Of a stretch of DNA of 64,000 bases, positions 10,426 to 62,075 are shown piece by piece. Within the stretch, counting starts at the first letter, position 1, and each line of letters starts with the position of its first letter. Both the position numbers and the translations under genes were made by a program. The notes beneath the pieces are model-generated. The model had not been told where the DNA came from and did not search any database. It saw only the letters and a list, made by a program, of their open reading frames with translations. The stretch is from Escherichia coli (GTDB taxonomy: Bacteria > Pseudomonadota > Gammaproteobacteria > Enterobacterales > Enterobacteriaceae). The DNA is taken from assembly GCA_002099625.1 (NCBI GenBank), contig GCA_002099625.1_4857.1; one strand, written 5' to 3'.

Positions 10426-10977
10426 ATGAGTTTATTTGGAAAGACCGCAAAAGAGTTGGTTTACGATCTTATCGTGTCCCAGAATCCCGGACTGACTGGC
10501 AAGGGCGTGACCATCGATAAATTGTCGTTCGGTAACCCGTCGCACATCACCGCATCCGATCCTGACCCAGAACAGTACACCAGACTGAACACCAGTCTCG
10601 ATGTTTCTGGTATCGTTGAGAAAGGTACGTTTGGTAAGATGGGTCTTACTTACCGTCGACTGGACGTAGCTCACCTGTTTGAAAACGTGGTGCTGTCTGT
10701 GGACGGTAGTAGCGCCAATACAGCCGCCGACCTCGTTCCGTTGTTACAGGCCAAGTACAATTGGTTGATTGATGCGAGCGAGATTTATGCGACGGAGTCA
10801 ATGACGTCTTCCACGAAACACAATTTGCGTTTCAATGGAAAGTCACTGGCGTGGACGGGTACGGTTGAAGTTTATTTGACCGAAGTTCCGAGCGATGGTG
10901 TCGATATCAGTAAACTGATCACCGTTACCGAGTTGAACGGTCTGGTTTATGACATCTCTGACATGACTCAAGCGTAA
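10426..10977 (+). CDS. Hypothetical protein (183 aa)
   Basis: ATG with GAGGT RBS; followed by a bidirectional hairpin terminator. Confidence 0.6.
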   Translation: MSLFGKTAKELVYDLIVSQNPGLTGKGVTIDKLSFGNPSHITASDPDPEQYTRLNTSLDVSGIVEKGTFGKMGLTYRRLDVAHLFENVVLSVDGSSANTAADLVPLLQAKYNWLIDASEIYATESMTSSTKHNLRFNGKSLAWTGTVEVYLTEVPSDGVDISKLITVTELNGLVYDISDMTQA

Positions 10978-11035
10978 CAAAAAAATAAGTAATGCGAGTA
11001 CCCCTAACGGGGTACTCGTTTGCTTTATTTTTTAG
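10977..11035. terminator. Bidirectional intrinsic terminator between convergent genes
   Basis: A-run, stem CGAGTACCCC / GGGGTACTCG (10995..11018) with TAAC loop, then T-run. Confidence 0.6.
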
Positions 11036-11454
11036 CGTTCAATAATCACTTTTACGATATCTTCTACCGGAGGGTAATACCACAGAACCACGCTGTTTCG
11101 TCCCAAGTCTTTTGGAAACGTTTGACAGTACGCAATGTCGGTGCCGAAGCGTTCAGAGAGCTTTAAAACGTTCTCTGGGAATTGACAGCCTCCTCGCCAA
11201 TCATGCGTATAGAGTACCTGCTGTAGTAACTTCACATTAGCATCGAAGAAGTACAGATTTTCTACCGGTGCAATGTGAGGTACCGGAATCGGTGTGTCGG
11301 TAAGTACGAACTCCAAACCACCGCATTGTTCTGAACGCTCCGCTAGGAATTTCAGATGCCATGGCATTAGACCGTGGTCTTCCCAGACGATGTTGTTGAC
11401 CAGTAAACGATCAACGTATTCATCGTAATCAACCGTGAACAGTTTCTTCGCCAT
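11032..11454 (-). CDS. Hypothetical protein (140 aa)
   Basis: ORF on minus strand, tightly packed with the upstream gene. Confidence 0.5.
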   Translation of the reverse strand: MAKKLFTVDYDEYVDRLLVNNIVWEDHGLMPWHLKFLAERSEQCGGLEFVLTDTPIPVPHIAPVENLYFFDANVKLLQQVLYTHDWRGGCQFPENVLKLSERFGTDIAYCQTFPKDLGRNSVVLWYYPPVEDIVKVIIER

Positions 11455-12343
11455 CTTTCACCTTCTGCTCAAGTTCAGCGGCAGTCATGTCTGCTTCTTT
11501 AACGAAGATACCGTCCGCGTTCAGGAAACCCTTACGGTCTTTGATTTCGTCCCACGCCAGAGAGAAGCACTGTTCCAGAGTCATATCGTACGCATTAGCC
11601 AGCGCATTGGCGTATTCGACCATCTGAGCGAAGTGACATTCGATCATTACCGCGTCGCTGTTCTCGAAGTGTTTATATTCGAGTTGCTTAGCTGAGTCGA
11701 TGCCGGCTTGATCCCAGATGTAATCAACAGCTGCTGTGAGATGGAAACGCATTTTGTGGAACAGGTAATGACTGTTCCCGGCAAGTGGGTTCTTTGAACG
11801 CGCTTCGTTGACATATGTGCTGATATCGGTCGAGTCAAACTTAATGAGTTCCATCAAGTTAACCAACACGACCAGAGCATCACCGATACCGTCCATGATG
11901 TAACGGCGTTTGTTTTTACTGATACCGGTTGCCGCTTCACCGTCTTCTTCGTAGAGTTTGGTGGCTTGGCTATACCAGACGCCGTTATCCAGAATACCAC
12001 GCGCTTTAGACCAACCCATAACGTTAGTAATACATTGTGGGATGGTGTACAAAGGTACGTAACGCGGACGATCAACCGTACCACGATACTCGACACCTTC
12101 CAACGTCCACGGCATTTCGAAATCATTTATTTCCAAACTCTGGTCGCCTGTGAATACTTTACCTTCGACGTAAGTGTGACCGGTTTCACTGTTCACGCAC
12201 AGGGTGTACAGTTTCTCAAAGGACCACGGTTCAACAAACTGACGTTGGCAGAATCCAGCCAGAAGCTCATTAATCTGTGCCAGGTACTGGTTAGGTTCAA
12301 CAATAACGTTATACGGAATCTGGATAATGAAACGGTCGCCCAT
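11429..12343 (-). CDS. Hypothetical protein with possible MazG-like all-alpha nucleotide pyrophosphohydrolase motifs
   Basis: AAGGAG RBS before ATG at 12343. Segments GDALVVLVNLMEL and EYANALANAYDMTLEQCFSLAWDEIKDRKG resemble MazG/dCTPase helices (weak, by eye). Confidence 0.5.
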   Translation of the reverse strand: MGDRFIIQIPYNVIVEPNQYLAQINELLAGFCQRQFVEPWSFEKLYTLCVNSETGHTYVEGKVFTGDQSLEINDFEMPWTLEGVEYRGTVDRPRYVPLYTIPQCITNVMGWSKARGILDNGVWYSQATKLYEEDGEAATGISKNKRRYIMDGIGDALVVLVNLMELIKFDSTDISTYVNEARSKNPLAGNSHYLFHKMRFHLTAAVDYIWDQAGIDSAKQLEYKHFENSDAVMIECHFAQMVEYANALANAYDMTLEQCFSLAWDEIKDRKGFLNADGIFVKEADMTAAELEQKVKDGEETVHG

Positions 12344-12354
12344 TTTGATAGCTC

Positions 12355-12397
12355 CTTAAACAAAAAAAAATAAGTAGGGTGTCCATATGGACACCCT
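12355..12397 (-). terminator. Intrinsic terminator (minus strand)
   Basis: Stem TAGGGTGTCC / GGACACCCTA (12374..12397) followed on the minus strand by a 9-T run; the next gene's RBS follows directly. Confidence 0.55.
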
Positions 12398-12407
12398 AAT
12401 ACGTATT

Positions 12408-12596
12408 TTAAATCTTGCACGCACCACCAGTGCAGTTGTCGTCGTCTTTCGACGGGTCAACGCCACCTTCCACACCTGCGTCAGGGTCAAGTCCAGGGAT
12501 AACCATCTCGTCATCCGGAGACATGTTTACATCCGCACCTAACCCATCACGATACATGAACGTTGTGGCTTGCCCACGACCGAGTTCTCCAGCCAT
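12408..12596 (-). CDS. Small hypothetical protein (62 aa)
   Basis: Short ORF between a terminator and the downstream gene; Gly/Asp-rich. Confidence 0.3.
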   Translation of the reverse strand: MAGELGRGQATTFMYRDGLGADVNMSPDDEMVIPGLDPDAGVEGGVDPSKDDDNCTGGACKI

Positions 12597-12608
12597 ATTT
12601 TCCTCTAC

Positions 12609-13088
12609 TTAATTAATCAGGTGTATCACAACGTCTGGCGTTACTACGTCGACCAGACTGCGATAGATTTTATCGTAACTGAACTTGTTGAAGAAGAAAC
12701 CCGCTTCATCGACAATAACCAAGCCGAATTTCTCGTAGCCGGATATACCAGCACCCGTCGCGCGTTTCCAACCCTCGGGCAAGTAGTTACAGTGCACGGT
12801 CAGCCAACCGTTCCCAGCGGCTTTTTCATGGAATTTCTCCACCACTTCGCTCCGTAACGCTTCGTTGTGAACCAGATACAGAACGCTGCCGTGGAACTTT
12901 GCTGACATATCAACAGCGTGTGTTGTAACGCCTTTCTGACGACCAGCGCCATAGCGGATAGTGCGGAACTCGCTCAGTGCAATATGTGGTAAAAAGCCAC
13001 AGCTGCGGGCTTCATTGGAGTCCAGTTCGATAAGACCTTTGGACAGTTCTTTTACTACGGCGCGATAATCGATCCGAGTTATAGACAT
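12609..13088 (-). CDS. Hypothetical protein (159 aa)
   Basis: ORF in the minus-strand gene array; contains LVIVDEAG (Walker-B-like) but no clear P-loop. Confidence 0.5.
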   Translation of the reverse strand: MSITRIDYRAVVKELSKGLIELDSNEARSCGFLPHIALSEFRTIRYGAGRQKGVTTHAVDMSAKFHGSVLYLVHNEALRSEVVEKFHEKAAGNGWLTVHCNYLPEGWKRATGAGISGYEKFGLVIVDEAGFFFNKFSYDKIYRSLVDVVTPDVVIHLIN

Positions 13089-13099
13089 CTGTTTTCACC

Positions 13100-13867
13100 T
13101 TATTTGTAGTTAACCGTATACGGCGCGCCCTGCTTAGTAAAGCCAACCGTCAGCTTGCTCGCCTCTTTCTTTACCCATGCGGGTAATTCTTCACGGAATG
13201 CCGGGTTCAAGAACCAAATCTGCTCATAGCGCCCGTCAATCTTTTCAACAACACGTTCCCAACCTTCGACGTACGTCAACGAGAACCATTTAAAACGCGC
13301 ATGGCGTGCCCAGTAGTGGTATTCGATGGTTCGACCGACGTGAGTCAAGACATCAATCAGAACTTGGTAGAAGCTCGGCTTTCCGATGACATGGGTATAC
13401 TCGAAGATAACAGATTCTTCGCCAGGGACGAAGTTATCTTCAAAATTCTTCTCCCCTGCTAAAGGTACCATTATCGTGTCGTTGTTGATACACAGCAACC
13501 AGTGCTTATTCGAAAATATCGGCGTGTCGCCCGAGAAACGAGCCCAGCGATAATTTTCAATCGCGACGCCAATCTGTGGCCGTAGTGTATCGACCACCTT
13601 CGCTATCGCTGCAGGATCTATCGGCTCATAGACCAGACAAATCGCTTGCACTTGCTCTCTTTCCTGCTCAGGTTCCGCAGGTCGTGGTCGCCGCCCCAGC
13701 ATCAAAATCCCACTAAGATTAGTTTCCCCAATCTCAATGATTTCTATTTCGCTAGTAGGAAGCTGCCGTTTAGCGTCCTCCATGTCGACGGCCCCTAATA
13801 ACCCGTATTCGTAGTCGTCGAATTCCACTGTGTAGAATTCATCGGAGAACGCAAAGAGTTTCATCAT
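13100..13867 (-). CDS. Hypothetical protein (255 aa)
   Basis: ORF in array. Confidence 0.5.
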   Translation of the reverse strand: MMKLFAFSDEFYTVEFDDYEYGLLGAVDMEDAKRQLPTSEIEIIEIGETNLSGILMLGRRPRPAEPEQEREQVQAICLVYEPIDPAAIAKVVDTLRPQIGVAIENYRWARFSGDTPIFSNKHWLLCINNDTIMVPLAGEKNFEDNFVPGEESVIFEYTHVIGKPSFYQVLIDVLTHVGRTIEYHYWARHARFKWFSLTYVEGWERVVEKIDGRYEQIWFLNPAFREELPAWVKKEASKLTVGFTKQGAPYTVNYK

Positions 13868-13868
13868 C

Positions 13869-14653: not shown

Positions 14654-14665
14654 AAACGCTCCTAA

Positions 14666-17414: not shown

Positions 17415-17453
17415 AAGATAAAAAATAAAGATACCCTCTCCCGAAGGAGAGGG
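17415..17453 (-). terminator. Intrinsic terminator (minus strand)
   Basis: Stem CCCTCTCC / GGAGAGGG with CGAA loop (17434..17453), T-run on the minus strand. Confidence 0.55.
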
Positions 17454-17459
17454 CACGAC

Positions 17460-18122
17460 TTAGATGCGGGTTTCATTATCCCAGTAGTTCCGAATGACTT
17501 CCTGGGCTTCAGCATCCGACGGGTTGCCTGGAATAGCGTCTTCTACTGCAAACGGCAATACGTCCTTGATAGACGTCAGCTCAAATCGCTCAACTTCCAG
17601 TTCGACTTTTACCCACTCGCCGAATGTAGTGGAGTCGCGCAGTTCGTTGACAAGGTCTTCGAAACCTGCCTGCGATTCGATAACTGGGTGACCTGCCAGT
17701 TTAAAGAACAAGTCGATATCCCAATGCTTCGCACCTTGCTCTGCCAGTTCACCTGGTTCGAGTTTGATACGACGCACGAGATGTGCAAGATTGCCATCTT
17801 CGTAGAAGGTCAGACCCGAGGCAAACCCGATATCCGAGTTCTCTTCGATACGACCATCAGATGCTTGTCGTTTTAACGTTAAGACTGCGGTTTTATCGGT
17901 GGACAACCGCACACGACGTTTGCCGTTAACGACCGGCATGATGACATCCAGGAACGTTTCACCTGTCTGACCAAACAGCCATTGCCAACCTTCTTCAGTG
18001 GGTTTAACCCACATGCAATACTCACGTTCCTTCTCCGTAGAGATGGACTCACGCGCAACAGTAATGACTTCTTTTTCCTGCTGCTCGTCTAAGTTTTTGA
18101 GAATATCAAATAGTCCCATCAT
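17460..18122 (-). CDS. Hypothetical protein (220 aa)
   Basis: ORF in array, ends before the hairpin at 17434..17453. Confidence 0.55.
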   Translation of the reverse strand: MMGLFDILKNLDEQQEKEVITVARESISTEKEREYCMWVKPTEEGWQWLFGQTGETFLDVIMPVVNGKRRVRLSTDKTAVLTLKRQASDGRIEENSDIGFASGLTFYEDGNLAHLVRRIKLEPGELAEQGAKHWDIDLFFKLAGHPVIESQAGFEDLVNELRDSTTFGEWVKVELEVERFELTSIKDVLPFAVEDAIPGNPSDAEAQEVIRNYWDNETRI

Positions 18123-21664: not shown

Positions 21665-21697
21665 AGGTGTTATCCTATTATGAGATGTTGTCTCGGA

Positions 21698-21710
21698 TAG
21701 ATAATATCTG
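21698..21710. promoter_or_regulatory. Near-palindromic motif TAGATAATATCTG (site 1 of 3-4)
   Basis: In the divergent region between 21134..21664 (minus) and 21741..22211 (plus). Confidence 0.4.
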
Positions 21711-21740
21711 TCTGAGTTCTTTTTGAGATGAGGTTATCCC

Positions 21741-22211
21741 ATGAGCGAAGAAGTGAAATACCAAGCGTTCGACGGAGATGTGGACAACGAAGATTCGCTT
21801 CTCCGCCAAACACAACAGCTACGCGTTAAGCTCGTCACGGATATGGTGAACGACGGTGAAGTACACAAAGACTTAAAAGCCGTCGACCGAATCGAACGCC
21901 TAATCAACGGCATCGACAAACAGGTCATGACGAAGCGGAAAATTAAAGCTGCTGAGAAAGGCGCTGAGGCGACTCAAGATTTGGCCAACAGTTTAAACGG
22001 CTTCTTAATGACCCGTGCAGGCGTTGGTATCAAACGTCACGACGATGAAGAAGATTTAAATAACGGATACCAACCCACCGTCCCACAGATTGCCGCAGTA
22101 CGGCCTCCGAAAGAAGGTGAGTTGGCACCAGTAGGCGAAAAGATTGACGTTGACCAGATCATGGCGTCTGCGTTTGCGAGTCGTCGTCCTGCTGATGACG
22201 ACGAAGACTAA
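21741..22211 (+). CDS. Hypothetical acidic protein (156 aa, C-terminal DDDED)
   Basis: Isolated plus-strand ORF inside the minus-strand block; its 3-prime end overlaps the convergent gene 22159..22887 by 53 nt. Confidence 0.5.
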   Translation: MSEEVKYQAFDGDVDNEDSLLRQTQQLRVKLVTDMVNDGEVHKDLKAVDRIERLINGIDKQVMTKRKIKAAEKGAEATQDLANSLNGFLMTRAGVGIKRHDDEEDLNNGYQPTVPQIAAVRPPKEGELAPVGEKIDVDQIMASAFASRRPADDDED

Positions 22212-22887
22212 ACAGAGCAGTGTCCTTTACGTCAGTACCGACGTATTGAGCAAGAAAACGGGTGGACTCCTTAAAGGGGTTCACCTTATCTCTTTTTATT
22301 TGCGCGATTGCTTCTTCCGTCAATTCGCTGGTCAGCATACTCGGTCGGGTAATGGTGAAATCCGGAATCGGTTTCTGGAAATGGCCCGCGTGTTGTTCTA
22401 TCCACGGGTACCAGTCGTACATTATCCAACCGTCCCACGCCGAAGCAAGTCGTCCTGGTGTAAGATCGCTGTGAGGAATAACAACGACGTCTACTTGCAC
22501 TTCGTTGTAGTAGTAGCGAAGTTCTTCCAAAAACGCATGACGTTCTTCATCATCGAGATCGGCGTATGGCCACAGGTTAAACGTTAAGACAGGTCGCTCG
22601 ATAGGAGCGTGCATCTGTATCGTCATTAACATTGCCTGTACTTCGTTCTTTAGCGTAAGCAACATTTCTGTTGGCTGCGCGTTCTGCAACGCGCGTTTAT
22701 CACGCTCCGCGAACTTTTTATTCCAGTCCTGAATTCCTACCACTTCGGCCCACGCATCCGTGAACCGCATCCGATACACTTCTAAATCAAGCTTCTCTAA
22801 TACATCAGGCTGCAGCACTTTCGCCCAACCAATTCGTGTATCGAAGATTGTGTCGATATCGACTAAGAAACGGCGTCCTAATCTCAT
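22159..22887 (-). CDS. Hypothetical protein (242 aa)
   Basis: ORF; ATGA-type overlap with the upstream gene. Confidence 0.5.
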   Translation of the reverse strand: MRLGRRFLVDIDTIFDTRIGWAKVLQPDVLEKLDLEVYRMRFTDAWAEVVGIQDWNKKFAERDKRALQNAQPTEMLLTLKNEVQAMLMTIQMHAPIERPVLTFNLWPYADLDDEERHAFLEELRYYYNEVQVDVVVIPHSDLTPGRLASAWDGWIMYDWYPWIEQHAGHFQKPIPDFTITRPSMLTSELTEEAIAQIKRDKVNPFKESTRFLAQYVGTDVKDTALFSLRRHQQDDDSQTQTP

Positions 22888-23837: not shown

Positions 23838-23864
23838 GGGAAAAAACAGGCGGGTTGCCCCGCC
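23838..23864 (-). terminator. Intrinsic terminator (minus strand), weaker
   Basis: Stem GGCGGG / CCCGCC with TTGC loop, followed on the minus strand by TGTTTTTT. Confidence 0.4.
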
Positions 23865-23869
23865 CATGC

Positions 23870-25776: not shown

Positions 25777-26532
25777 ATGAATGTTAATCCACTTGCAGCG
25801 TTGTCGGGCTTTGTTGCCAAAGCATCCACGATTCTGCCTAAAGCCTTTAGCGGCTCTCAACAGGAACTCGCGCTGACCACCTATGACGACATGTCTGATG
25901 TGTCCAAGTGGATGCAGCAAGAGAAGTTTTTAAACTTTACCGGAATGCTTGTACCCGTACCACCGGGCTTCAACACGTATGTGATGGACCACATAGAACG
26001 GTTGGAATCTGTATGGGCTGTGCTCCAGAAGATTCAGGAAGGGGTTTTAAGTCCCATCGACAAACGTTTCGGCGCGATGACACACGACCTGGGCATGTTA
26101 ACTCTGCCGATTGGGTTTAAGTTCAAAGACCTGAACTATCCACTGAAAAACATCAATCCGAAAGACCTGGTTGAAAAACTGGCGAAGTCGTACACCAACA
26201 ATGTGATCGACCAGCGTGCGATTGAAAAGACCTACCACAGTGCAGGTGAGATTGACGTTGCGTTTAATCGTGCCAAAGCGCTGAACCTGGAAGTGACTAA
26301 GAAACTCCAGAAAGGTATTGACCGTACAGTTGAAAGCATCAACGTCTCTGTAGACATTATCTCTAATTCACAAGTCCATCCTAATGTGGCGGCAGAGTTA
26401 GTGAAAATGGCTGACATGGGTGCTGACTGGGTTGAGCTGTTCGGACTGTTTATGAAACAGATTAATGAACTGACAGAATGCCTGAACGTAACCGGTGATC
26501 GCCTCAAGACCCTGAAAGCAAACAAAAAATAA
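25777..26532 (+). CDS. Hypothetical protein (251 aa)
   Basis: Plus-strand island bounded by an AT-rich divergent region and a bidirectional terminator. Confidence 0.55.
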   Translation: MNVNPLAALSGFVAKASTILPKAFSGSQQELALTTYDDMSDVSKWMQQEKFLNFTGMLVPVPPGFNTYVMDHIERLESVWAVLQKIQEGVLSPIDKRFGAMTHDLGMLTLPIGFKFKDLNYPLKNINPKDLVEKLAKSYTNNVIDQRAIEKTYHSAGEIDVAFNRAKALNLEVTKKLQKGIDRTVESINVSVDIISNSQVHPNVAAELVKMADMGADWVELFGLFMKQINELTECLNVTGDRLKTLKANKK

Positions 26533-26588
26533 AAAGTAAGCAGTACCCACTCCCCTTACGGGAGTGGGTAGGCTTTATTTTATTTCGG
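26527..26588. terminator. Bidirectional intrinsic terminator
   Basis: A-run, stem TACCCACTCCC / GGGAGTGGGTA (26544..26570), T-run; lies between convergent genes. Confidence 0.6.
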
Positions 26589-26594: not shown

Positions 26595-27137
26595 TTAGAA
26601 TTTACTGATAGCAAGAGGCTGCATTGGCTCGACCACAATCAGTATTTCTTTCAGACGTGAAACGATATGCTCCCAGACCTGTGCTTCGAGGTGACGTAGC
26701 ATGGTGGTGAACTCACCCATGTACATCTCTTTATACTCGTCGCGGTTGAGATGTTCCCACGCTTCTTTCAATGGGCCTGCTTCCGGTCCAGACATCTTAA
26801 TCATCATTTCGATGTCCTTCATTTCATCAAACGCTTTACCGACCTTATCAATAACCTCATCGGTCTTGAGTTCGAGTGAGAAGCGACCCATCTTAGACTG
26901 CAGGAAGCCGTCTTCAATGTCTTCGTCGTTGTATTCGAAACACGCAATACGTTGCGCGAGTTGATGAACTTCATTTACCGCGATATTGACGTACGCCGCA
27001 GAGATAAGTCCAGCGAGGTGTTGACGATCGATATTCTTCGGTATCAGATAGTCTTCACACTTACGCTTAAACTCGAACAACGCCGCTGGAAATATTTCAC
27101 GAAATTCGTCATCGAGTAAATCAATGAATATTTTCAT
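26595..27137 (-). CDS. Hypothetical protein (180 aa)
   Basis: ORF in array. Confidence 0.5.
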   Translation of the reverse strand: MKIFIDLLDDEFREIFPAALFEFKRKCEDYLIPKNIDRQHLAGLISAAYVNIAVNEVHQLAQRIACFEYNDEDIEDGFLQSKMGRFSLELKTDEVIDKVGKAFDEMKDIEMMIKMSGPEAGPLKEAWEHLNRDEYKEMYMGEFTTMLRHLEAQVWEHIVSRLKEILIVVEPMQPLAISKF

Positions 27138-29261: not shown

Positions 29262-29274
29262 TAGATAATATCTA
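29262..29274. promoter_or_regulatory. Near-palindromic motif TAGATAATATCTA (site 2)
   Basis: About 35 nt upstream of the start of gene 28494..29228. Confidence 0.4.
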
Positions 29275-29281
29275 TCTCAGA

Positions 29282-32300: not shown

Positions 32301-32341
32301 CGTAAAAAAGGAAATCCCCTCTTACCCGAAGGTAAGAGGGA
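32301..32341 (-). terminator. Intrinsic terminator (minus strand)
   Basis: Stem CCCCTCTTACC / GGTAAGAGGG with CGAA loop; T-run on the minus strand. Confidence 0.55.
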
Positions 32342-34758: not shown

Positions 34759-35382
34759 ATGGCACAACTGTTGCCTAACACGCCTCAGGTTAACCTTGAG
34801 GGGTTGTTCAAGGTTAAGGCACCTTATACGTTGCCGGATAAAGTGATTTATCGTGTTGACGCGGTACAGAACTTTCCGAAACTCCAACGTAACAACATTG
34901 ACGTTTATAACAAGTATTATAAACCTGTCGGCCTAACTCGTGACGACTATATCAGCGACGCTAATGTCGAAGCCTCGATTGTAACATTAAAGTCGAGGGA
35001 CGGTCAAGTCTACGAGTTGCCTGATACGTACATTGAGACGTATCCTGGACTGAACGGGTTAAATTATAGACGCAATGTGGTGGTTATTGACCTGGCATTA
35101 ATACCCGAATACGTCGATGTCACACTGCTAACGAACGACCTGAAAAGCATCTTAGAACGCGGTTTAGGAATCGATGCACGTGTGGACATCACATCGATGG
35201 ATTACGAAGGGACGGTGACGGAAGAAGAACACTTGCAAATGGAAGCGGTGCGTAAAGCCAAAATCCGTGAGCAGATTCCTCTGACAGAACAAGTTGCAAC
35301 ACTCACTAAGCAGAATCAAGAACTGCAGGCGTTGAATGATGCGATGTTGAAAATCCTGAAAGATAATGGGTTAACAAATTAA
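34759..35382 (+). CDS. Hypothetical protein (207 aa)
   Basis: ORF with AGGAGGG RBS; C-terminal coiled-coil-like segment; followed by a bidirectional terminator. Confidence 0.55.
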   Translation: MAQLLPNTPQVNLEGLFKVKAPYTLPDKVIYRVDAVQNFPKLQRNNIDVYNKYYKPVGLTRDDYISDANVEASIVTLKSRDGQVYELPDTYIETYPGLNGLNYRRNVVVIDLALIPEYVDVTLLTNDLKSILERGLGIDARVDITSMDYEGTVTEEEHLQMEAVRKAKIREQIPLTEQVATLTKQNQELQALNDAMLKILKDNGLTN

Positions 35383-35436
35383 AGAAAAAAAGAACTACCT
35401 ACTCCCAAGGGAGTAGGTAGGCTTTTATTTTTTTAT
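35381..35436. terminator. Bidirectional intrinsic terminator
   Basis: A-run, stem CTACCTACTCCC / GGGAGTAGGTAG (35395..35420), long T-run. Confidence 0.6.
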
Positions 35437-35440: not shown

Positions 35441-36598
35441 TTACTTGCCGATGATATCGCGGACCATTGCTTTGATTGTGGCAGCGGTACGTTTCTTTTT
35501 CGGCAGCTTGCGGATTTCTGCGTACAGTTTATCCAGGTTCAGCGTTTTCTGTACCTGCGCAACAATCTGCATTTGCTCTTCGTCGATCTTCACTTCGACG
35601 GTTTGTTCCTGCATTTTGCCCAGTTCCTGAATCACACTGGAAACCGATACCGGATAAGCTGTTGATTTTGGACGTTCGATACCGAGGGTGACAAAGATTT
35701 CGTCGTCAATAAACACATTTTCGATATCAACCAAGTTTTCCAGAATGATTTCATCGTGGCCTTCATCTTCCGACGCATTCGGGTATGGACGTTTGTAGGT
35801 GTAATCCCACACGTCATAACCGAGTTTATCTGCGAGTTGTACGAAACCTTCCCAGGTTACTTCGCCGGGGTTGATAGTCTGACCACGGAAACCGGGGTTG
35901 GCCGTAAAGACTTTCACCCAGTCGATGTTCGCGATGTTACGGCACTCTTCCAGCGGCGCGTAACGATCTCCCACTTCGTCATTGTCAGTCTCTTCAACAT
36001 GCTCTGCTTCACAACGCTCGAAAGTAACTGAGTGTGGTTTACCGTCACCGAAGATAACGGAGGCAGCACGCCAGTCTTCGATAGTCCACTGGACATGAGT
36101 CAATTCAATGTAACAATGCCCAACCTTAGCACGGCCCTGTGGGGCACTTACTGGTTTAATCAACTCACCTGGTTCGAAGAAGAATCCGTCAGAATGTGCA
36201 ATGGCATACCAGACACCATCAACACCTTCAACGAGAATAGACCAGTTATAAGGCGCGTGGCAATTTTGGAAAGCTACGCCCAGCATACTTCCCCAACGGT
36301 CATCTGGCGAATATTTCAGTGGCGGCAGGTTATCAAACTGAAGAGTTTGAGAAGAAAGGCACAACTTATTACGCAGGTGCGGCAGCGGCAGATAAGCCTC
36401 CACATTGTTATCGACCAGCGCATTGTAAAGATCCGGGTTGATAACACCGGTGCCAGTGACGTGTTGTGCAATCAGAGCTTCTGAATATGCACGAATACCC
36501 TCGTAGCTAAGCACATACGCACGGTCACGTACTACACGAGCCATATCTTCGATTACGGAAATTGGAAATTGCATGTTAATAGTCCTTATAAAAGTCAA
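35441..36598 (-). CDS. Hypothetical protein (385 aa)
   Basis: ORF after the bidirectional terminator. Confidence 0.55.
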   Translation of the reverse strand: MTFIRTINMQFPISVIEDMARVVRDRAYVLSYEGIRAYSEALIAQHVTGTGVINPDLYNALVDNNVEAYLPLPHLRNKLCLSSQTLQFDNLPPLKYSPDDRWGSMLGVAFQNCHAPYNWSILVEGVDGVWYAIAHSDGFFFEPGELIKPVSAPQGRAKVGHCYIELTHVQWTIEDWRAASVIFGDGKPHSVTFERCEAEHVEETDNDEVGDRYAPLEECRNIANIDWVKVFTANPGFRGQTINPGEVTWEGFVQLADKLGYDVWDYTYKRPYPNASEDEGHDEIILENLVDIENVFIDDEIFVTLGIERPKSTAYPVSVSSVIQELGKMQEQTVEVKIDEEQMQIVAQVQKTLNLDKLYAEIRKLPKKKRTAATIKAMVRDIIGK

Positions 36599-36634
36599 TG
36601 GTATTTTCAGATGATTAGTTACTGCTGTAAAAAA

Positions 36635-36910: not shown

Positions 36911-36947
36911 AATTAAATAAAAGGTGGTCAGACCCGAAGGTCTGACC
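36911..36947 (-). terminator. Intrinsic terminator (minus strand)
   Basis: Stem GGTCAGACC / GGTCTGACC with CGAA loop; T-rich run on the minus strand. Confidence 0.5.
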
Positions 36948-38355: not shown

Positions 38356-38367
38356 TGATAATATCTA
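38356..38367. promoter_or_regulatory. Near-palindromic motif TGATAATATCTA (site 3)
   Basis: Between the macro-domain gene and the secreted SLT gene, about 90 nt upstream of the latter. Confidence 0.35.
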
Positions 38368-38865
38368 TTTGAAACTATTTGGGATGATTTTCTCTGCTTC
38401 CTTTAGCAGTGTGTCCGGTAAATAGAATCGATAAGTCTGCTCCGTGTGTTGTAGTCGTTTCTGTAAGTGTATAAAGATTTCCAATCGCTCATGGTAACGT
38501 AACCAACCGTTAGCCATCCCTAGGGGCGGTATCGCAATCCCTCCTTCTAAGTCTTCCCCTAGTCGCGCCAGCGCATCAATGCCGGACGTGACATAGTAAA
38601 TCTGCGATTTATAGCGAAAATGGGTTTTAGTAGGAAGGAGTATTACCCCTTCCTCAGGATAACAATAGACCTCACCGATAACGATTTGCTCTTTACGACA
38701 TTTCTGGCGATAGTCATTATAAAGCGATGGGAAGCGTTCTCGGCACGCCAAAGCAATGCCCCTTCCCATTGCACCAACACAGTTAACTGTAACGACCTTG
38801 AAGCGCTCAGGCGCGTTAAACAAGTCGTGGGAGATAACGGCCTCGTCGATCAGTTCGAGTGACAT
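38365..38865 (-). CDS. Macro-domain protein, TARG1/DarG-like subclass (166 aa)
   Basis: VTVNCVGAMGRGIALACRERFP matches the TARG1-type C..MGAGIA..F...F motif (recalled from memory); downstream IAIPPLGMANGWLRY fits the second conserved block. Confidence 0.6.
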   Translation of the reverse strand: MSLELIDEAVISHDLFNAPERFKVVTVNCVGAMGRGIALACRERFPSLYNDYRQKCRKEQIVIGEVYCYPEEGVILLPTKTHFRYKSQIYYVTSGIDALARLGEDLEGGIAIPPLGMANGWLRYHERLEIFIHLQKRLQHTEQTYRFYLPDTLLKEAEKIIPNSFK

Positions 38866-43963: not shown

Positions 43964-43997
43964 GTAAAAAAGAAGAAATGGAACCCCGAAGGGTTCC
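43964..43997 (-). terminator. Intrinsic terminator (minus strand)
   Basis: Stem GGAACCC / GGGTTCC with CGAA loop; T-run on the minus strand. Confidence 0.5.
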
Positions 43998-44008
43998 AGA
44001 GAGGAGAG

Positions 44009-44650: not shown

Positions 44651-44681
44651 AACAAAAAAAGAAGGTAGCCTACGGGCTACC
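44651..44681 (-). terminator. Intrinsic terminator (minus strand)
   Basis: Stem GGTAGCC / GGCTACC with TACG loop; 7-T run on the minus strand. Confidence 0.5.
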
Positions 44682-44689
44682 TCTCGTAT

Positions 44690-46641: not shown

Positions 46642-47029
46642 TTTTAATATCTCCACGATTAAGGGTGATGCGACCGACGAGCACATCGTTGTGATAAAAG
46701 CTCACAGCAACCATATTCGGTAATTCCAGTGGTGACACACTGACCGAGGTGACTTTTGGTTGATTGCACGATATGTCAATCAACCGCTGATACATTTTCA
46801 ATTTCTTATCAGCGATAACCAGCCCTGTGCAGTTCTTACCGTCCGTCAGTCTGTAGATTTGTAACTGTTCGACCTCACGCATCAGTTCTGGTTTTTCATT
46901 CGGCGCAATGCCATAATCCGAATCAGCTGATGTGTATTCAGTCACGTCTGGCTTATCGAAAGCATAAGTTGCTGCAATACCACATGCGGCCAGAACTACT
47001 ACTGCTTGTAAGAACTTCTTGATAGTCAT
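46628..47029 (-). CDS. Secreted small protein (133 aa)
   Basis: Signal peptide MTIKKFLQAVVVLAACGIAATYA; AATCGACTATA motif 11-20 nt upstream of the ATG. Confidence 0.5.
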   Translation of the reverse strand: MTIKKFLQAVVVLAACGIAATYAFDKPDVTEYTSADSDYGIAPNEKPELMREVEQLQIYRLTDGKNCTGLVIADKKLKMYQRLIDISCNQPKVTSVSVSPLELPNMVAVSFYHNDVLVGRITLNRGDIKNEMQ

Positions 47030-47039
47030 GTTTTACTCT

Positions 47040-47049
47040 ATAGTCGATT
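47040..47049 (-). promoter_or_regulatory. Promoter-like motif AATCGACTAT (minus-strand sense)
   Basis: Between terminator 47054..47083 and the ATG of secreted-protein gene 46628..47029. Confidence 0.4.
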
Positions 47050-47053
47050 GGTT

Positions 47054-47083
47054 TAAAAAAGAATAGGCTACCCGAGGGTAGCC
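47054..47083 (-). terminator. Intrinsic terminator (minus strand)
   Basis: Stem GGCTACCC / GGTAGCC with GAG loop; TATTCTTTTTT on the minus strand. Confidence 0.55.
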
Positions 47084-47112
47084 AGTTGAGTTAATCTCTT
47101 AACTCTCACCTA

Positions 47113-47132
47113 GGTAATATATATCTGAGATA
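47113..47132. promoter_or_regulatory. Degenerate variant GGTAATATATATCTGAGATA (possible site 4)
   Basis: Shares TAATAT..ATCTGAGAT with site 1; sits between the stop of 47135..47731 and its terminator. Confidence 0.2.
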
Positions 47133-47134
47133 TT

Positions 47135-47731: not shown

Positions 47732-47754
47732 CTCAAATTAATTTGAGTTAAGTG

Positions 47755-47796
47755 TAAAAAATAAGAGGACTCCAGTAACCGCGAGGGTTACTGGAG
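47755..47796 (-). terminator. Intrinsic terminator (minus strand)
   Basis: Stem CTCCAGTAACC / GGGTTACTGGAG with GCGA loop; T-run on the minus strand. Confidence 0.55.
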
Positions 47797-49504: not shown

Positions 49505-49533
49505 AAAAAATAAGAAGGGGGTACAAGACCCCC
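49505..49533 (-). terminator. Intrinsic terminator (minus strand)
   Basis: Stem GGGGGT / ACCCCC; T-run on the minus strand. Confidence 0.45.
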
Positions 49534-50782: not shown

Positions 50783-50902
50783 TTGGTATTTCCTTTAAAG
50801 TACACTAAAGTGACCAAAAACTGTTACTAAAGAACAGTTGGTGTTTAAGCGACTGTGGGTTTATACACAATGCTCACTAAGATGACATCTATCTGTAAAA
50901 AC

Positions 50903-51220
50903 TTAGTATACAACCAGTACGATGCAGTCATCGATAGCCAGATTCAGTAATGCGTAGTCGTTACTTAACCGCTGGTAACGCATCCCTTTTTCAAACTGAC
51001 TTAGTTGTTCAGTCGGCATGACGTATACCGCGCTTTGCACTACTCCCGTAAACAGTTCGTTGTAGAACTGGTCTACTTCCCCGACTTTGTAAAAGCGCAT
51101 TCTTTGATTGTTAGCAAAGACGCTGTCTAGCTTCCCGTTACTGGCTTTCTGTACCGCAGTAAAGGCACTGTCTGCATCATTACGCTCTAATGCACTTTTA
51201 ATGGTTTGAAATAAAGACAT
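50903..51220 (-). CDS. Hypothetical protein (105 aa)
   Basis: ORF diverging from the plus-strand gene at 51401. Confidence 0.45.
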   Translation of the reverse strand: MSLFQTIKSALERNDADSAFTAVQKASNGKLDSVFANNQRMRFYKVGEVDQFYNELFTGVVQSAVYVMPTEQLSQFEKGMRYQRLSNDYALLNLAIDDCIVLVVY

Positions 51221-51380
51221 GGTACTGCACTCCTCGTTAGGTTAAAAGTCAAGGTCAACTACAAAAAGGATGTCGGTATCCTACGGATACCTCCGTTTAT
51301 GTTCGCATCCAATACATAAACCCCCTTACCCCCGTACTCTCCTCGATTGTCAAACGATGAGATCGAAACGTAAAAAAGTG

Positions 51381-51390
51381 TAGTATGAGA
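51381..51390 (+). promoter_or_regulatory. TAGTATGA element upstream of a plus-strand gene (candidate promoter core)
   Basis: TAGTATGAGA 11-20 nt upstream of ATG 51401; similar element at 54101..54110 and a TATTATGAG variant at 21675..21684. Confidence 0.3.
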
Positions 51391-51400
51391 GGAGGGTGGT

Positions 51401-52333
51401 ATGAATAAATCTAAGTCAGGGTTGCACATCTTCTCGATAGGTATCGTCGCGGAAGATAAACCTCGTGGTGCCACTCGAGTTAAAGTCATCCCTATCGAAG
51501 TTAACTTTATTAATCCTACAGCTGTCGATGCAACAGAGACACCTGTAGAGAAGCAACACAACAGTTTAAGTGGTACTGACAACCTTACTGTAAAGCAAGG
51601 TAATGCCATCACTGCAAAATGGATGAAGTCCAACAGCAACCGGGTTAACCCTCCGGATGTGAAAAAAGAAGACTACGTAAGAATCTGGCGTATCGGTGAA
51701 ACCGATATGTACTTCTGGGAAGATTTAAACAACAGTAACGTTAAGCGACTGGAAGATGGGGTATACGCCTGGTCTGCTGACCCAGTAAACCAGATGGCCG
51801 ATGACCTCTCTAACGCCTACGTACTGAATATCTCCCCGATGGATGGTCACGTTACTTTACGTACCAGTATGACTAACGGTGAGAAAAATGCGTATTTGCT
51901 CCAGCTGAATACCCGTGATGGGTTTTGCCAGTTAGTGGATGACGAAGGGCGTAAGTTCTACCTCAATTCTCCGGAGGATGACTTAGGGTTTGAAAACGCC
52001 TGCCGGTCGAAGATTAATATCAATAAAGAGGACGCTTTCATTTATGCTAAACGTTCTATTAATCTCGAGACAAAGACGATTAACGAGAAGTGCGAAACTC
52101 GCAACTCTACAGCGTCGAAAAACATGGCATGGACGACTGAAGACTGGAAGACCACATGCCCAACGAATCTATTTACCGGTAACCTGGAAGTAGGTAAGAA
52201 TTTCCTCTATAACGGCAAGGGTGAGGGTAAGGGCACATTCACAGTTACCGAATCGGTTATCGGCGGCATCACCTTTACTCTTCACGTACATACTGGCCAT
52301 GGTCCGGGCAACGACACCAGTACACCGCACTAA
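51401..52333 (+). CDS. Hypothetical protein (310 aa)
   Basis: ORF with GAGGAGGG RBS; TAGTATGA motif 11-20 nt upstream. Confidence 0.55.
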   Translation: MNKSKSGLHIFSIGIVAEDKPRGATRVKVIPIEVNFINPTAVDATETPVEKQHNSLSGTDNLTVKQGNAITAKWMKSNSNRVNPPDVKKEDYVRIWRIGETDMYFWEDLNNSNVKRLEDGVYAWSADPVNQMADDLSNAYVLNISPMDGHVTLRTSMTNGEKNAYLLQLNTRDGFCQLVDDEGRKFYLNSPEDDLGFENACRSKININKEDAFIYAKRSINLETKTINEKCETRNSTASKNMAWTTEDWKTTCPTNLFTGNLEVGKNFLYNGKGEGKGTFTVTESVIGGITFTLHVHTGHGPGNDTSTPH

Positions 52334-52750: not shown

Positions 52751-52761
52751 TCGGCCTGCGG

Positions 52762-52820
52762 GCAAAAAAGATATAGGTACCCTACTCCCGTTGGGAGTAG
52801 GGTTTACCTTTTATTTTTTT
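52762..52820. terminator. Bidirectional intrinsic terminator
   Basis: A-run, stem TACCCTACTCCC / GGGAGTAGGGT (52778..52804), 9-T run. Confidence 0.6.
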
Positions 52821-54073
52821 CGTGCTTTGTAGCGATGCATTTCAACAAATGGCTTACCCCAAGCCCCGAAAGGCCCGACGATTGCCTGCGCGTCGTTTAC
52901 CAAATTCTGGTTATACCAACGCGCGTTCCCCAACAAAAAGTTTTCCCGGTCGAAGAATGTGGTATTAAAGACCCACTCCCCTTCTTCCCAGGTCGGCCAG
53001 TACCCTACACATTTACCAATACGGTTAAAGATAGGACCTAGCGTCTTCTTCCCATCTGGGTCAGTCGGGTCTTTTAAATAGAACCGGCCCCAGATAGCGT
53101 TGTGGCTTATTCCGTGAATCTCTTTTTCGAGATACGGGTTGTCTATCGTAAAGATAAACGAGGATTCGTGCGTCAGCAACGCTTTTAACGTTTCTGAGTT
53201 ACGAATACGTTGAACGGACGTAGGCGTACTTAAATCACCTACACCGATGGCGTCCCAATCGTAATAGCGACGGGTTTCCAATACAATCTTCGCCACGCTA
53301 AGGTTTGGCAGACTCAGCATAATCGCACGGTCGCTGAAATAGCCCTGCGGTGGCAACCAATGCAGAATACCCCCGATGACGAACCCAACGGTTTTCCCTG
53401 TAATGGAATCGGGTAAGGTCAGCATTAACGAAGAATAGTAATCTCGCGTAGTATCGAGTTTGTTCATCGTTAAACTGGATATGGGGTAGGTCTTTACTTT
53501 ACCGATATTTGCCATCACCAGACAGCCAATGTCTGGCGTATTGGCACGCCGCACGATATTACCAGCGCCGGTTAAGCGAACGCCCACTGGGTCAGATTGG
53601 TGAGGTACCCACTGGCCATTGATGTTGTACAGCACCCCAGTACGGTATTTCTCTTTCCACTCATCGTCGCAGACTACAACAACGTCGTGTGCATCATCGG
53701 GATTGAAGTCCTGAGTGTAATGGTACCCAGGAGGGCACAGGTGCGTTTCTACGGGCACATCTGCATTAATAGACTGGTAGTGTGCCTCAACGAATTCGAG
53801 CTTCGGTAGGCCCTTCCCAAGCGTTGGAATCGCGATTCCTGACTTGGTGTTTAACCAATCTTGCAACGTGTCCGTACGGTTTTGTAAATCAGCCAGGTGA
53901 TACTGGCTATAGAAGGTATATTCAGCACCTAGTGCTTCTAGTCCTACTTCGAAAAAGTGGTAGTTAGCACAAAGGGTATTTAAGGGCTGCGTGACATCGA
54001 TGGTTCCCCAAGTTCGGGTGTCTCGAGAGAAGCCAAAAGCGCTGTCGGCCCGCACTTGATAAGCAGTAGTCAC
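52811..54073 (-). CDS. Hypothetical protein (420 aa)
   Basis: ORF between a bidirectional terminator and the plus-strand structural block. Confidence 0.55.
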   Translation of the reverse strand: MTTAYQVRADSAFGFSRDTRTWGTIDVTQPLNTLCANYHFFEVGLEALGAEYTFYSQYHLADLQNRTDTLQDWLNTKSGIAIPTLGKGLPKLEFVEAHYQSINADVPVETHLCPPGYHYTQDFNPDDAHDVVVVCDDEWKEKYRTGVLYNINGQWVPHQSDPVGVRLTGAGNIVRRANTPDIGCLVMANIGKVKTYPISSLTMNKLDTTRDYYSSLMLTLPDSITGKTVGFVIGGILHWLPPQGYFSDRAIMLSLPNLSVAKIVLETRRYYDWDAIGVGDLSTPTSVQRIRNSETLKALLTHESSFIFTIDNPYLEKEIHGISHNAIWGRFYLKDPTDPDGKKTLGPIFNRIGKCVGYWPTWEEGEWVFNTTFFDRENFLLGNARWYNQNLVNDAQAIVGPFGAWGKPFVEMHRYKARKK

Positions 54074-57854: not shown

Positions 57855-57866
57855 GGAGATTTTTGA

Positions 57867-60800: not shown

Positions 60801-61997
60801 AACTCCCACACCAGTTTAAACTGCGGCTTTATTGCTGCGCCGTACGATAAACCAACCGGAAGAATTGCCACCACACAATCCAGCGTTACTAATACGCTGG
60901 TTGATGCTCCTCGTGTAATCAAGAGCGTGGATGTTCAGTCGCCTGACTGTTTAGACTATCTCCCGGTTTCAATCGCTAGCGAGTTCGCAGCCATTGGTTC
61001 GCGCTGGCTTATTCGTTATCGCTATATTGTTGATACGCAGATACTGCGAATATCGTCGATTAGTAAGATAGGTGGGCAGGCTTCGGCGACTGTTCGTGAG
61101 ATAGAATACGACATTCCGTTTGACGCGATTGATTATTTTAAAGGTGGCGCTTTATCGATTGGTGTTACTGGCCTCGAAACTGGTGAAGGCGTCACAATCA
61201 ACCACGGTTTGATGGACCCTTCCACAACAGAAGTGGATTTAAATCGTTTCCATTATCTACGCTCGCTATTTGAGTCGTATATTGAGCGTTCTCCGGACAG
61301 CCAGTCTTCTGGGCATGAGGAGATGTCGATATCAACCGTCGCGTTCGCGAACTTTGGAGATAACGTCGATAACCCGGTTACGGAATACATCACGATGTCT
61401 GCTGCAAGTGAGGGTTATCCGGAACTTGCACCGAACGGTAAACTCCCCGCACCGTTTTACAAAGGGCTGCAGAAACGTGGTGCTCCGCTACTTGAGTCGG
61501 CTCCTGCAGACTATACGTCTAACGGTGGTGAATGGAAGTACGGCTTTATGCGGGCTTATCGCCCAACTCAAAATGAGCGTTTTGTGTCGGTAAATGGGAC
61601 AATGCTCTCTAACTACCCTGGATATATCATCGTGGGTAGTGAGAAAATTCCGGGTAATGTTATACCTTTCAGTGCATCGACAACAGCTGTTCAGATATCT
61701 GGGACTCTTGCCCGCACGAAACCGATGCAGCCAATTCACATCGTGTTCGTGCCTCCGGAAGGTTCTGTGCCGCCGCTGCAAGCGAAGTTCACTATTAACG
61801 GTGTGGGTAGTAGTGGTAATCCGATGTTCGTGATTACTGAAACGACACCGGTGGAACTTCGCACGGGTGGCGAGACGATTCTCATTGAGAAGCGTAATCC
61901 ATTCCACATCCCCACCAGGACATGGGATTGGATTTTACAAACGTTGGATACTGAACGTAGAAACGAAGGCAACAACTCGGGTGAGTGGGCCTCTTAG
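57867..61997 (+). CDS. Large hypothetical virion protein (1376 aa), tail-fibre-like
   Basis: Long ORF 12 nt after the previous one, AAGGAG RBS; followed by tandem hairpins. Confidence 0.65.
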   Translation: MKTYPYDPRGVNPECHFIEERIIDSDNPNDRVVMLDHRPFFEGLVVRLAGSSIPLTRGTDYELEYALTPLDDSVTTPVFCGVHLINPKLRGAVVFEGQMLGGTFYSGLIEMLDELVKALNNPTAADWLLLGNRPSLYPATPAAVAWSDMLNKKYVASAVHDVELDAGAANEQIREKLTELKDAVLGLGTEIATFNYPGHIASTNPHGTTAAQAGAHPVNLKTPDTFLAYGKTLRQLTNEVRALGLQQSDIDKYISKWVSKESKGVFNATISGTRALFRSPAGESEIVFSAEAFTLKSNGSVVLACGYADTTGTVRFMEWKAGINTLRIESTGSALGMDKLTLNGTTLLTTTALMGYQQDPGTSGGTVDPDDNKLYISGVNGITFTGKGSKADPVTGKVTAKPATTSEPGVVTLTDKPSDVVKGQAATPASLLPYEGDLSSYVRKTTLLNNQPMDTGSRTLTKKDLGLDLADNTADVDKPLSDALAEAVTDLSDKGHHHNFADLQIPTASQTVPGIARYSTNLNSLSDNRGVTPNVLNDLSKRLDVVAAALANAKEDTVTDFAAVRGKTWTVGSTRTTVAVTDLNYFYLLNGARKEGTVSGSIDLQTTPMFQWFSPDNRMERTWQNAVINTGAGIDFSGFEVAVPETNYGAQIGLTTTGMGDLSVVNLLAKTWVRCDSGKLRIWVRGGGAVSVYLDGEIIGAGITEAGYLEATVKEGWKQHCLAFRAECNDSAKAAAIRFTIYDGDFAVGASDKNTKVARLQEFVKTPNGLRHYLYVNMITDALYSRAEPIVDTEGINLERGYIGHIDVPDAGLVAGTTYEFETTFDFGMASELKRHFETRLAHGVSNTDWSLTDNPKMLPLNKVDPLPKQWLYAYPTNPSVSGDNLVRLDRGLFDYKFVSATSLRILLAAVVSTENASPYCWFTPSNPKENGMATFEGSVVIDTDYPEVPKTSDVEVSLNFMAPSADGKGKTRVLRWSNSHTSLNCGFIAAPYDKPTGRIATTQSSVTNTLVDAPRVIKSVDVQSPDCLDYLPVSIASEFAAIGSRWLIRYRYIVDTQILRISSISKIGGQASATVREIEYDIPFDAIDYFKGGALSIGVTGLETGEGVTINHGLMDPSTTEVDLNRFHYLRSLFESYIERSPDSQSSGHEEMSISTVAFANFGDNVDNPVTEYITMSAASEGYPELAPNGKLPAPFYKGLQKRGAPLLESAPADYTSNGGEWKYGFMRAYRPTQNERFVSVNGTMLSNYPGYIIVGSEKIPGNVIPFSASTTAVQISGTLARTKPMQPIHIVFVPPEGSVPPLQAKFTINGVGSSGNPMFVITETTPVELRTGGETILIEKRNPFHIPTRTWDWILQTLDTERRNEGNNSGEWAS

Positions 61998-62075
61998 GAC
62001 GGACTGCCTACGGGCGGGTAGTCCGTAGGTAAACCGCCCTTCCGTTATTGGGAGGGCGGTCTCCGTTTTATTACA
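61998..62075 (+). terminator. Tandem hairpins with T-run after the 1376-aa gene
   Basis: ACGGACT / AGTCCGT and ACCGCCCT / AGGGCGGT stems, then CTCCGTTTTATT. Confidence 0.5.

Follow-up and report, generated by a model that had tools for sequence, protein, structure and literature searches.

Probable intrinsic transcription terminators, several with C(UUCG)G loops, in a 64-kb stretch of an SPN3US-like jumbo phage

Introduction

The stretch of DNA analysed here (64,000 nucleotides of contig GCA_002099625.1_4857.1, assembly GCA_002099625.1, filed under Escherichia coli; hereafter the window) belongs to the SPN3US group of giant Salmonella phages. In megablast comparisons it showed 97% identity to phage SPLA3 and 95% identity to SPN3US over 7.5-20 kb, and its gene order is common to Erwinia phages of other genera. 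The genus Seoulvirus is placed in the Chimalliviridae (NCBI taxonomy). The minus strand holds most of the genes between 11 kb and 54 kb, which matters for how the hairpin loops described below are read. A search of the whole window against Rfam gave no match above the gathering threshold for any curated family, and a tRNA scan of the window found nothing. Here we present a set of 15 intergenic hairpin sites (T1-T15, positions 10994-62060), which are probably factor-independent (intrinsic) terminators, together with their statistics, structure, conservation and relation to known terminator systems.

Relatives within the Chimalliviridae encode two RNA polymerases (RNAPs), one virion and one non-virion, both multisubunit, and their transcription is independent of the host enzyme (PMC7598289; PMC10914365). 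Because the phage belongs to this family, the polymerases terminated at the hairpins would, by analogy, probably be its own multisubunit RNAPs. Matches to sigma70-type promoters were at or below the shuffle expectation in every block (e.g., 13 versus 25.2±4.8 at 40-60 kb and 4 versus 10.6±2.8 at 54-64 kb), a scarcity consistent with a genome that avoids, or does not use, host promoters.

Hairpin sites

The sites are listed with their coordinates, strand, structure, free energy and z-score (where given), position relative to genes and state in related phages (pEa29 stands for pEa_SNUABM_29).

T1, 10994-11019, both strands: 11-bp stem between the convergent genes 10426-10977 (+) and 11032-11454 (-); loop UAAC (+) or GUUA (-), tails T-rich on both strands; -20.8 kcal/mol, z -6.0; kept in SPLA3, SPAsTU and phiEaH2, in phiEaH2 with a C/G to G/C swap.

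T2, 12375-12398, minus strand: 10-bp stem, loop AUAU, tail CUUAUUUUUUUUU; -18.3 kcal/mol, z -5.9; ribosome-binding site (RBS) of a MazG-like gene 16 nt past the stem; kept in phiEaH2 with the outer pairs changed.

T3, 17431-17456, minus strand: 11-bp stem, C(UUCG)G loop, tail CUUUAUUUUUU; -20.2 kcal/mol, z -5.7; 3 nt past the stop codon of gene 17460-18122, next start codon 29 nt downstream; UUCG loop retained in SPAsTU and phiEaH2.

T4, 23846-23867, minus strand: 9-bp stem including G·U pairs, loop CAAC, U6 tail abutting the stem; -15.9 kcal/mol, z -1.7 (weakest among the 15); next start codon 21 nt downstream; kept in SPAsTU and pEa29.

T5, 26544-26570, both strands: 5-nt loop on an 11-bp stem, flanked by the convergent genes 25777-26532 (+) and 26595-27137 (-); -23.6 kcal/mol; found in all six relatives, with compensatory changes at 5 of 21 pairs.

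T6, 32316-32341, minus strand: 11-bp stem, C(UUCG)G loop, tail AUUUCCUUUUUUACG; -19.2 kcal/mol; 4 nt past the stop codon; UUCG loop invariant in three genera, compensatory changes at 7 of 11 pairs.

T7, 35395-35420, both strands: stem CTACCTACTCC/GGAGTAGGTAG between the convergent genes 34759-35382 (+) and 35441-36598 (-); -20.6 kcal/mol; kept in all relatives.

T8, 36926-36947, minus strand: 9-bp stem, C(UUCG)G loop, tail ACCUUUUAUUUA; -17.8 kcal/mol; next start codon 24 nt downstream; orthologs with other stems and UUCG or UCCG loops.

T9, 43979-43998, minus strand: 8-bp stem, C(UUCG)G loop, tail UUUCUUCUUUUUUACG; -14.1 kcal/mol; upstream of an SbcC/SMC-like gene; UUCG loop invariant in three genera, 3 of 8 pairs compensatory.

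T10, 44662-44683, minus strand: 9-bp stem, loop CGUA, tail CUUUUUUU; -15.2 kcal/mol; RBS 13-16 nt past the stem; loop UACG in SPN3US, SPLA3, SPAsTU and phiEaH2.

T11, 47066-47083, minus strand: 7-bp stem, loop CUCG, tail UAUUCUUUUUU; -14.3 kcal/mol; promoter-proximal, within a 5' untranslated region (UTR), with an invariant AT-rich motif resembling an early promoter some 30-45 nt upstream; loop UUCG in SPN3US, SPAsTU and pEa29.

T12, 47770-47796, minus strand: 11-bp stem, 5-nt loop, tail UCCUCUUAUUUUUUAC; -18.0 kcal/mol, z -6.8; orthologs with unrelated stems and UUCG or UCCG loops.

T13, 49517-49533, minus strand: 6-bp G/C stem, 5-nt loop, tail UUCUUAUUUUUU; -11.1 kcal/mol, z -2.7; stems covary in SPAsTU and pEa29.

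T14, 52779-52803, both strands: 11-bp stem with a 3-nt loop between a small (+) gene ending near 52755 (homology to SPN3US_0172) and gene 52811-54073 (-); -23.5 kcal/mol; a different stem at the same site in Machina.

T15, 62033-62060, plus strand: 12-bp stem, tail CUCCGUUUUAUU; -23.1 kcal/mol; downstream of the gene for a 1376-amino-acid virion protein, RBS of the next gene 20 nt past the stem; kept in three genera; loop UUCG in pEa29.

Abundance and stability

A strict scan, which asked for a perfect stem of 6 bp or more, a free energy of -9 kcal/mol or lower and at least six T within an 8-nt window of the tail, found 23 strand-specific matches in the window, compared with 1.7±1.2 (maximum 4) in 60 shuffles. 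Intergenic DNA makes up 6.0% of the window and holds 21 of the 23. When the concatenated intergenic DNA was shuffled by itself, the expectation was 0.16±0.39 versus 19 matches observed. A terminator consensus scan flagged all 15 sites, and in two central 20-kb blocks it returned 42 and 44 terminator-like sites versus 19.4±4.8 and 20.1±5.0 after shuffling. Perfect stems were likewise in excess over dinucleotide shuffles, both at 8 bp or more (38 loci versus 11.8±3.6) and at 9 bp or more (21 versus 4.2±2.2). Folded with ViennaRNA, each of the 15 sites forms a single hairpin (-11.1 to -23.6 kcal/mol, z -1.7 to -6.8), and at 13 of them none of 200 shuffles reached a fold as good. Chance and base composition as the source of the hairpins are thus excluded by the shuffles, including those of intergenic DNA only. 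The initial annotation had counted at least fifteen intergenic, GC-rich hairpins with short loops and had proposed terminator prediction as a check; the count stands, and the prediction bears it out.

Stems, tails and spacing

The stems (6-12 bp) differ in length and sequence, and the loops measure 3-5 nt, with 4 nt at 10 of the 15 sites. CC/GG forms the two loop-adjacent pairs at 13 sites, and at seven the 5' arm is strongly pyrimidine-rich (e.g., GCCCTCTCC, TCCCTCTTACC and CTACCTACTCC). For some five positions the tail is rich in C and T; T is most frequent from +6 to +11, in a run that one A usually interrupts (CTTTATTTT or CTTATTTTTT). At least five T within 8 nt starting 0-2 nt past the stem (a U-tract test) were present at all 15 sites.

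All 11 one-sided sites are co-oriented with the upstream gene. At nine of them the stem begins 2-10 nt past the stop codon (at T2 some 9 nt, judging from the sequence), the exceptions being T11 (51 nt) and T15 (35 nt), and over all 11 the next start codon follows the stem at 21-66 nt. A Shine-Dalgarno sequence lies 11-20 nt past the stem at T2, T3, T4, T10 and T15; it was at these sites that the earlier statement of an RBS within 10-20 nt of several hairpins proved correct.

Loops and transcribed strand

On the plus strand the loop reads CGAA at four of the 15 sites (T3, T6, T8 and T9), each behind a minus-strand gene, so that the loop of the RNA is UUCG closed by C-G, an extra-stable tetraloop. 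The initial annotation had described CGAA loops as frequent; they do occur at these four sites, but CGAA is the complement of the functional loop, and the transcripts would carry C(UUCG)G. Of the 42 copies of the hexamer CTTCGG in the window, the four intergenic ones, each on the minus strand, are the only ones in stems of at least 8 bp; the 38 intragenic copies have stems of at most 4 bp. UUCG accounts for four of the eight tetraloops of unidirectional sites (rough binomial P ~2e-8), and CUUCGG was the commonest combination of loop and closing pair among unidirectional matches in each of six genomes scanned. The orthologs of T11 and T12 carry UUCG or UCCG and those of T10 carry UACG, so that UNCG loops are the rule at one-sided sites. 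At T3, T6 and T9 the UUCG is invariant despite changing stems.

An A-run upstream together with a T-run downstream, scored on both strands, was found only at T1, T5, T7 and T14. The flanking runs that had been taken to make the hairpins work in both directions are therefore real at these four sites, all at convergent junctions, while the other 11 sites are one-sided. T1, T5, T7 and T14 occupy four of the five convergent gene junctions; the fifth, where the genes overlap, has a plus-strand hairpin:

22260-22286, plus strand: possible terminator of gene 21741-22211 (+), with 12 pairs, -17.3 kcal/mol and tail UAUCUCUUUUUAUU, located inside the 3' end of the converging (-) gene.

The loops at the two-sided sites are varied, and both flanks are conserved in three genera. 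Divergent junctions are without a terminator-like hairpin, except for the palindrome 21692-21716, which lies in a promoter-like motif.

Conservation and covariation

Orthologous intergenic regions were compared in SPLA3, SPN3US, SPAsTU and pEa_SNUABM_29 (Seoulvirus), phiEaH2 (Erskinevirus) and Machina (Machinavirus). At T1-T9, T12, T14 and T15 all orthologs examined have a hairpin. T10 and T13 lack an equivalent in Machina or phiEaH2, whose genes adjoin directly at these points, and in Machina T11 is replaced by a neighbouring hairpin. Double compensatory changes with pairing kept were seen at T6 (7 of 11 pairs), T9 (3 of 8) and T5 (5 of 21), and at T8, T12, T13 and T14 whole stems are replaced with the hairpin persisting. 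Transition mismatches, read in the transcribed orientation, comprise 18 G·U versus 4 A·C, the A·C lying at stem peripheries; these and the covariation counts come from related sequences and are not independent events. The bias towards G·U, the strand-specific UUCG and the compensatory changes in the stems together point to selection at the level of the RNA, not of the palindromic DNA.

Between genomes of 95-97% identity, loops were found reverse-complemented with unchanged stems at four places: 35406-35409 (T7), 44671-44674 (T10), 47781-47785 (T12) and 52790-52792 (T14). The T7 loop is CAAG in the window and CTTG in SPLA3 and SPN3US; the T14 loop is GTT in the window and SPLA3 and AAC in SPN3US; the T12 loop is ACGAG in SPLA3 and CTCGT in SPN3US. 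At T10 the plus strand reads TACG in the window and pEa29 versus CGTA in SPLA3, SPN3US, SPAsTU and phiEaH2, a pattern that implies repeated flipping, of the template-switch kind known from palindromes. The comparison of loops covers three close and four distant genomes, Seoulvirus genomes being few in IMG/VR.

The exact T7 stem (CTACCTACTCC-N4-GGAGTAGGTAG) was found at 12 loci in eight viral contigs of IMG/VR, three of the copies in one contig of 240,761 bp; the flanks are mostly A-run and T-run, and seven of the 12 loops are TTCG or CGAA. A terminator stem is thus reused, at the level of sequence, at non-orthologous sites. Within the window, CCTACTCC is found at both T7 and T14.

Comparison with known terminator systems

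In phage phiKZ, 133 termination regions have been mapped, 61 of them with a conserved motif of hairpin plus TTAT and six of them bidirectional; in 201phi2-1 there are 132 terminators, 15 of them bidirectional, eight validated in vivo and some located just downstream of promoters (Oxford Nanopore Technologies (ONT)-cappable-seq; PMC10914365, PMC11512511). Applied to 50 kb of phiKZ, the strict scan gave 19 matches of like appearance, six with UUCG, including CCCTCCC-TTCG-GGGAGGG-CTTTATTTT; one phiKZ stem (GCCCTCTCC/GGAGAGGGC) is identical to the core of T3. Besides the common family (Chimalliviridae), the hairpins of the window share several traits with those of phiKZ and 201phi2-1: a GC-rich stem whose 5' arm is rich in pyrimidines and whose 3' arm is rich in G, C-G as the closing pair, a loop of 4 nt in which UUCG is frequent, a tail rich in T and broken by a single A (CTTTATTTT), two-sided copies between convergent genes, and further copies in 5' UTRs just past promoters. 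They differ in their longer stems (8-12 bp versus about 7), their far more varied sequence and a T-run usually set back by 3-9 nt. For the two Pseudomonas phages the 3' ends have been mapped. On these features the hairpins of the window share the architecture of the phiKZ terminators while standing outside the phiKZ sequence motif.

With canonical rho-independent terminators the sites share a GC-rich stem, a loop of 3-5 nt, a U-rich tail and placement just past stop codons; as in canonical bidirectional terminators, an upstream A-tract would let the element work on both strands. In contrast to the canonical form, the U-tract is often distal and interrupted by C, many sites lie 11-20 nt from the next RBS in the manner of intra-operon attenuators, and the polymerases, judged by family membership, would probably be divergent phage multisubunit RNAPs inside the phage nucleus.

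Hairpins with C(UUCG)G in phage T4 were reportedly over-represented between genes and linked to termination and to the stability of mRNA 3' ends (Tuerk et al., 1988). Both systems have a very stable UUCG tetraloop, closed by C-G and enriched between phage genes, but T4 is of an unrelated lineage with other transcription machinery, and in the window's phage group conservation of the loop with covarying stems is seen across three genera.

Other hairpins and promoter-like motifs

Two hairpins without a T-run of their own directly follow stop codons:

8136-8157: perfect 9-bp GC-rich hairpin TAGGGGGTG GCAA CACCCCCTA, 3 nt past the stop codon of a tail-fibre-like gene of 2373 amino acids.

61999-62026, plus strand: accessory hairpin 2 nt past the stop codon, just upstream of T15; retained with altered stem bases in SPAsTU, pEa29, phiEaH2 and Machina.

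The gene after the hairpin at 8136-8157 probably starts at the GTG at 8181 (RBS AGAGAGG) and not at 8142, and the hairpin itself might stabilise RNA or act as a weak pause site.

Intergenic DNA upstream of minus-strand genes carries an AT-rich motif, TCAGATA(G/T)ATATTA(C/T), with (T/C)AGGTGAG often coming after it; the motif has six matches at up to three mismatches versus 1.2 expected. In this group of phages it probably serves as the early promoter, used by the virion RNAP (cf. PMC7598289). Its minus-strand copies are:

21701-21715
29265-29279
38358-38372
47114-47128, invariant in three genera
about 50880-50895

Two further non-coding stretches were noted:

47029-47134, minus strand: the invariant promoter-like motif followed by two hairpins within about 45 nt, the second being T11 with its T-run; possibly, by analogy with cases in phiKZ and 201phi2-1 (PMC11512511), a promoter-proximal terminator, a 5'-UTR attenuator or a small RNA.

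51221-51400: on the minus strand a conserved, apparently structured non-coding stretch upstream of gene 50903-51220, with GGGGGnAAnGGGGG and then CGGAGGTA-hairpin-TACCGACATCC, the stem of the hairpin covarying; on the plus strand GTAGTATGAGAGGAGG, a TATG resembling the phiKZ late-promoter core plus an RBS, just before the structural gene 51401-52333.

Interpretation

We consider it likely that the 15 hairpins are intrinsic terminators of an SPN3US-like jumbo phage. The observed basis is the hairpins themselves, their statistical excess, their tails and placement, the strand logic, the conservation and the covariation. The terminator reading already proposed in the initial annotation gains support from position, strand logic, thermodynamics and cross-genus covariation, and from the homologous architecture with mapped 3' ends in phiKZ and 201phi2-1. 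In the literature searched, the intrinsic terminators of the Chimalliviridae had not previously been described for Seoulvirus.

From this basis we infer the release of the polymerase, the leakiness of the sites and the identity of the polymerase. Past the stop codon the nascent RNA would fold into a very stable GC-rich hairpin, often capped by the fast-folding C(UUCG)G tetraloop, and the weak rU:dA hybrid over the pyrimidine- and U-rich tract would let the transcript go. At convergent gene pairs, one palindrome with an A-run and a T-run would serve both strands. In same-strand arrays the one-sided hairpins would act as attenuators that adjust relative expression levels. Leakiness is required of them, given that at five sites the next RBS lies within 11-20 nt. 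The retained hairpin would also shield the 3' end of the upstream mRNA.

Several points weigh against termination at these sites. At most of them the first run of four or more T begins 3-9 nt (median 5) past the perfect stem, after a C/T-rich spacer, which is a looser geometry than the textbook stem followed directly by a U-tract. At five sites the RBS is so near that efficient termination would silence the next gene. The phiKZ consensus (BCCYCCCCHWWDGGGRRGGBYTTATKYYGT, up to three mismatches) had no match in the window versus four in 50 kb of phiKZ, and a relaxed form had none versus 11, which rules out membership in the phiKZ sequence motif. TTAT occurs in 11 of 19 tails versus 8.0±2.0 expected from tail composition (P ~0.1), an excess that is not significant, and TTAT was not adopted as a distinct tail element. 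A literature search found no transcript 3'-end data for SPN3US-like phages.

For the close RBSs, the initial annotation had offered read-through, a promoter inside the flanking run or a role in RNA processing. Read-through is the only fit at T2, T3, T4, T10 and T13, where the short distance from stem to start codon (21-33 nt) leaves it as the simple route to expression and so calls for leaky termination. A promoter in the flanking run is a live option at T6, T9 and T12, where the end of the T-run plus AC (TTTTTTAC, then G or A) might restart transcription for the next gene. Such a terminator-promoter module, which would add to the terminator reading and not replace it, is a tentative proposal that we regard as possible and somewhat doubtful. 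The 8-mer TTTTTTAC has five copies in the window, all intergenic and all on the minus strand (32302-32309, 36627-36634, 43964-43971, 47754-47761 and 51370-51377); Seoulvirus, Erskinevirus and Machinavirus have kept it at the corresponding positions, including the copies at 36627-36634 and 51370-51377 that have no hairpin, and the next start codon usually follows at 44-53 nt. The late promoters of phiKZ are similarly tiny (T(-3)ATG(+1); PMC7598289). However, the motif is short, five copies are few, and none of them lies at the sites where the RBS is closest; the A-C that ends a T-run might be no more than the favoured way for a U-tract to finish.

A stronger form of the terminator reading, in which the hairpins are a dedicated stop signal co-evolved with the non-canonical multisubunit RNAPs of nucleus-forming jumbo phages, is unlikely on present evidence. 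The reuse of stems (CTACCTACTCC/GGAGTAGGTAG and CCTACTCC), the invariant C(UUCG)G and the set-back U-run could mean that the polymerase, or else a phage factor for termination or antitermination, recognises a specific sequence. If the signal is indeed dedicated, the linked restart element TTTTTTAC would give compact terminator-promoter modules.

For many of the C(UUCG)G hairpins between phage T4 genes, and for stabilisers of the repetitive extragenic palindromic (REP) type, a role in RNA stability or processing has been suggested. That the hairpins of the window are primarily elements of this kind, blocking 3' exonucleases or marking endonuclease cuts in long read-through operons, seems improbable. 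Read-through must indeed be common where an RBS lies within 11-20 nt (T2, T3, T4, T10 and T15), the UUCG loops confer extreme stability, and the hairpins at 8136-8157 and 61999-62026, which lack a T-run, also stand directly after stop codons. Yet T-rich tails are present at all 15 sites and conserved across genera, the convergent junctions have T-runs on both strands, needed for termination and unneeded for stabilisation, and the equivalents in phiKZ and 201phi2-1 coincide with primary 3' ends and drops in read depth. Stabilisation and termination are compatible and do not exclude each other. Action of the palindromes at the DNA level, as cruciforms, protein-binding sites or signals for recombination or replication, is very improbable: the stems are perfect inverted repeats and the loop flips between close relatives at four sites are a DNA-level event typical of palindromes, but UUCG is always on the transcribed strand, in the transcribed orientation 18 G·U stand against 4 A·C, one-sided T-runs point the same way as the genes, and stem sequence changes freely while pairing is kept.

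Implications

The current understanding of termination is unchanged by these sites. Read as terminators, they provide a map of transcription units for part of an SPN3US-like genome that consists mostly of hypothetical genes, comprising 15 stop signals together with five likely early promoters and one candidate restart motif. Tests of how the unusual phage RNAPs terminate could draw on the bidirectional elements and on the hairpins with UUCG, which could also be used as compact insulators in phage engineering. The hairpin-plus-T-run architecture of the Pseudomonas jumbo phages reaches into the enterobacterial Chimalliviridae as well, where selection on RNA pairing appears to hold it in place.

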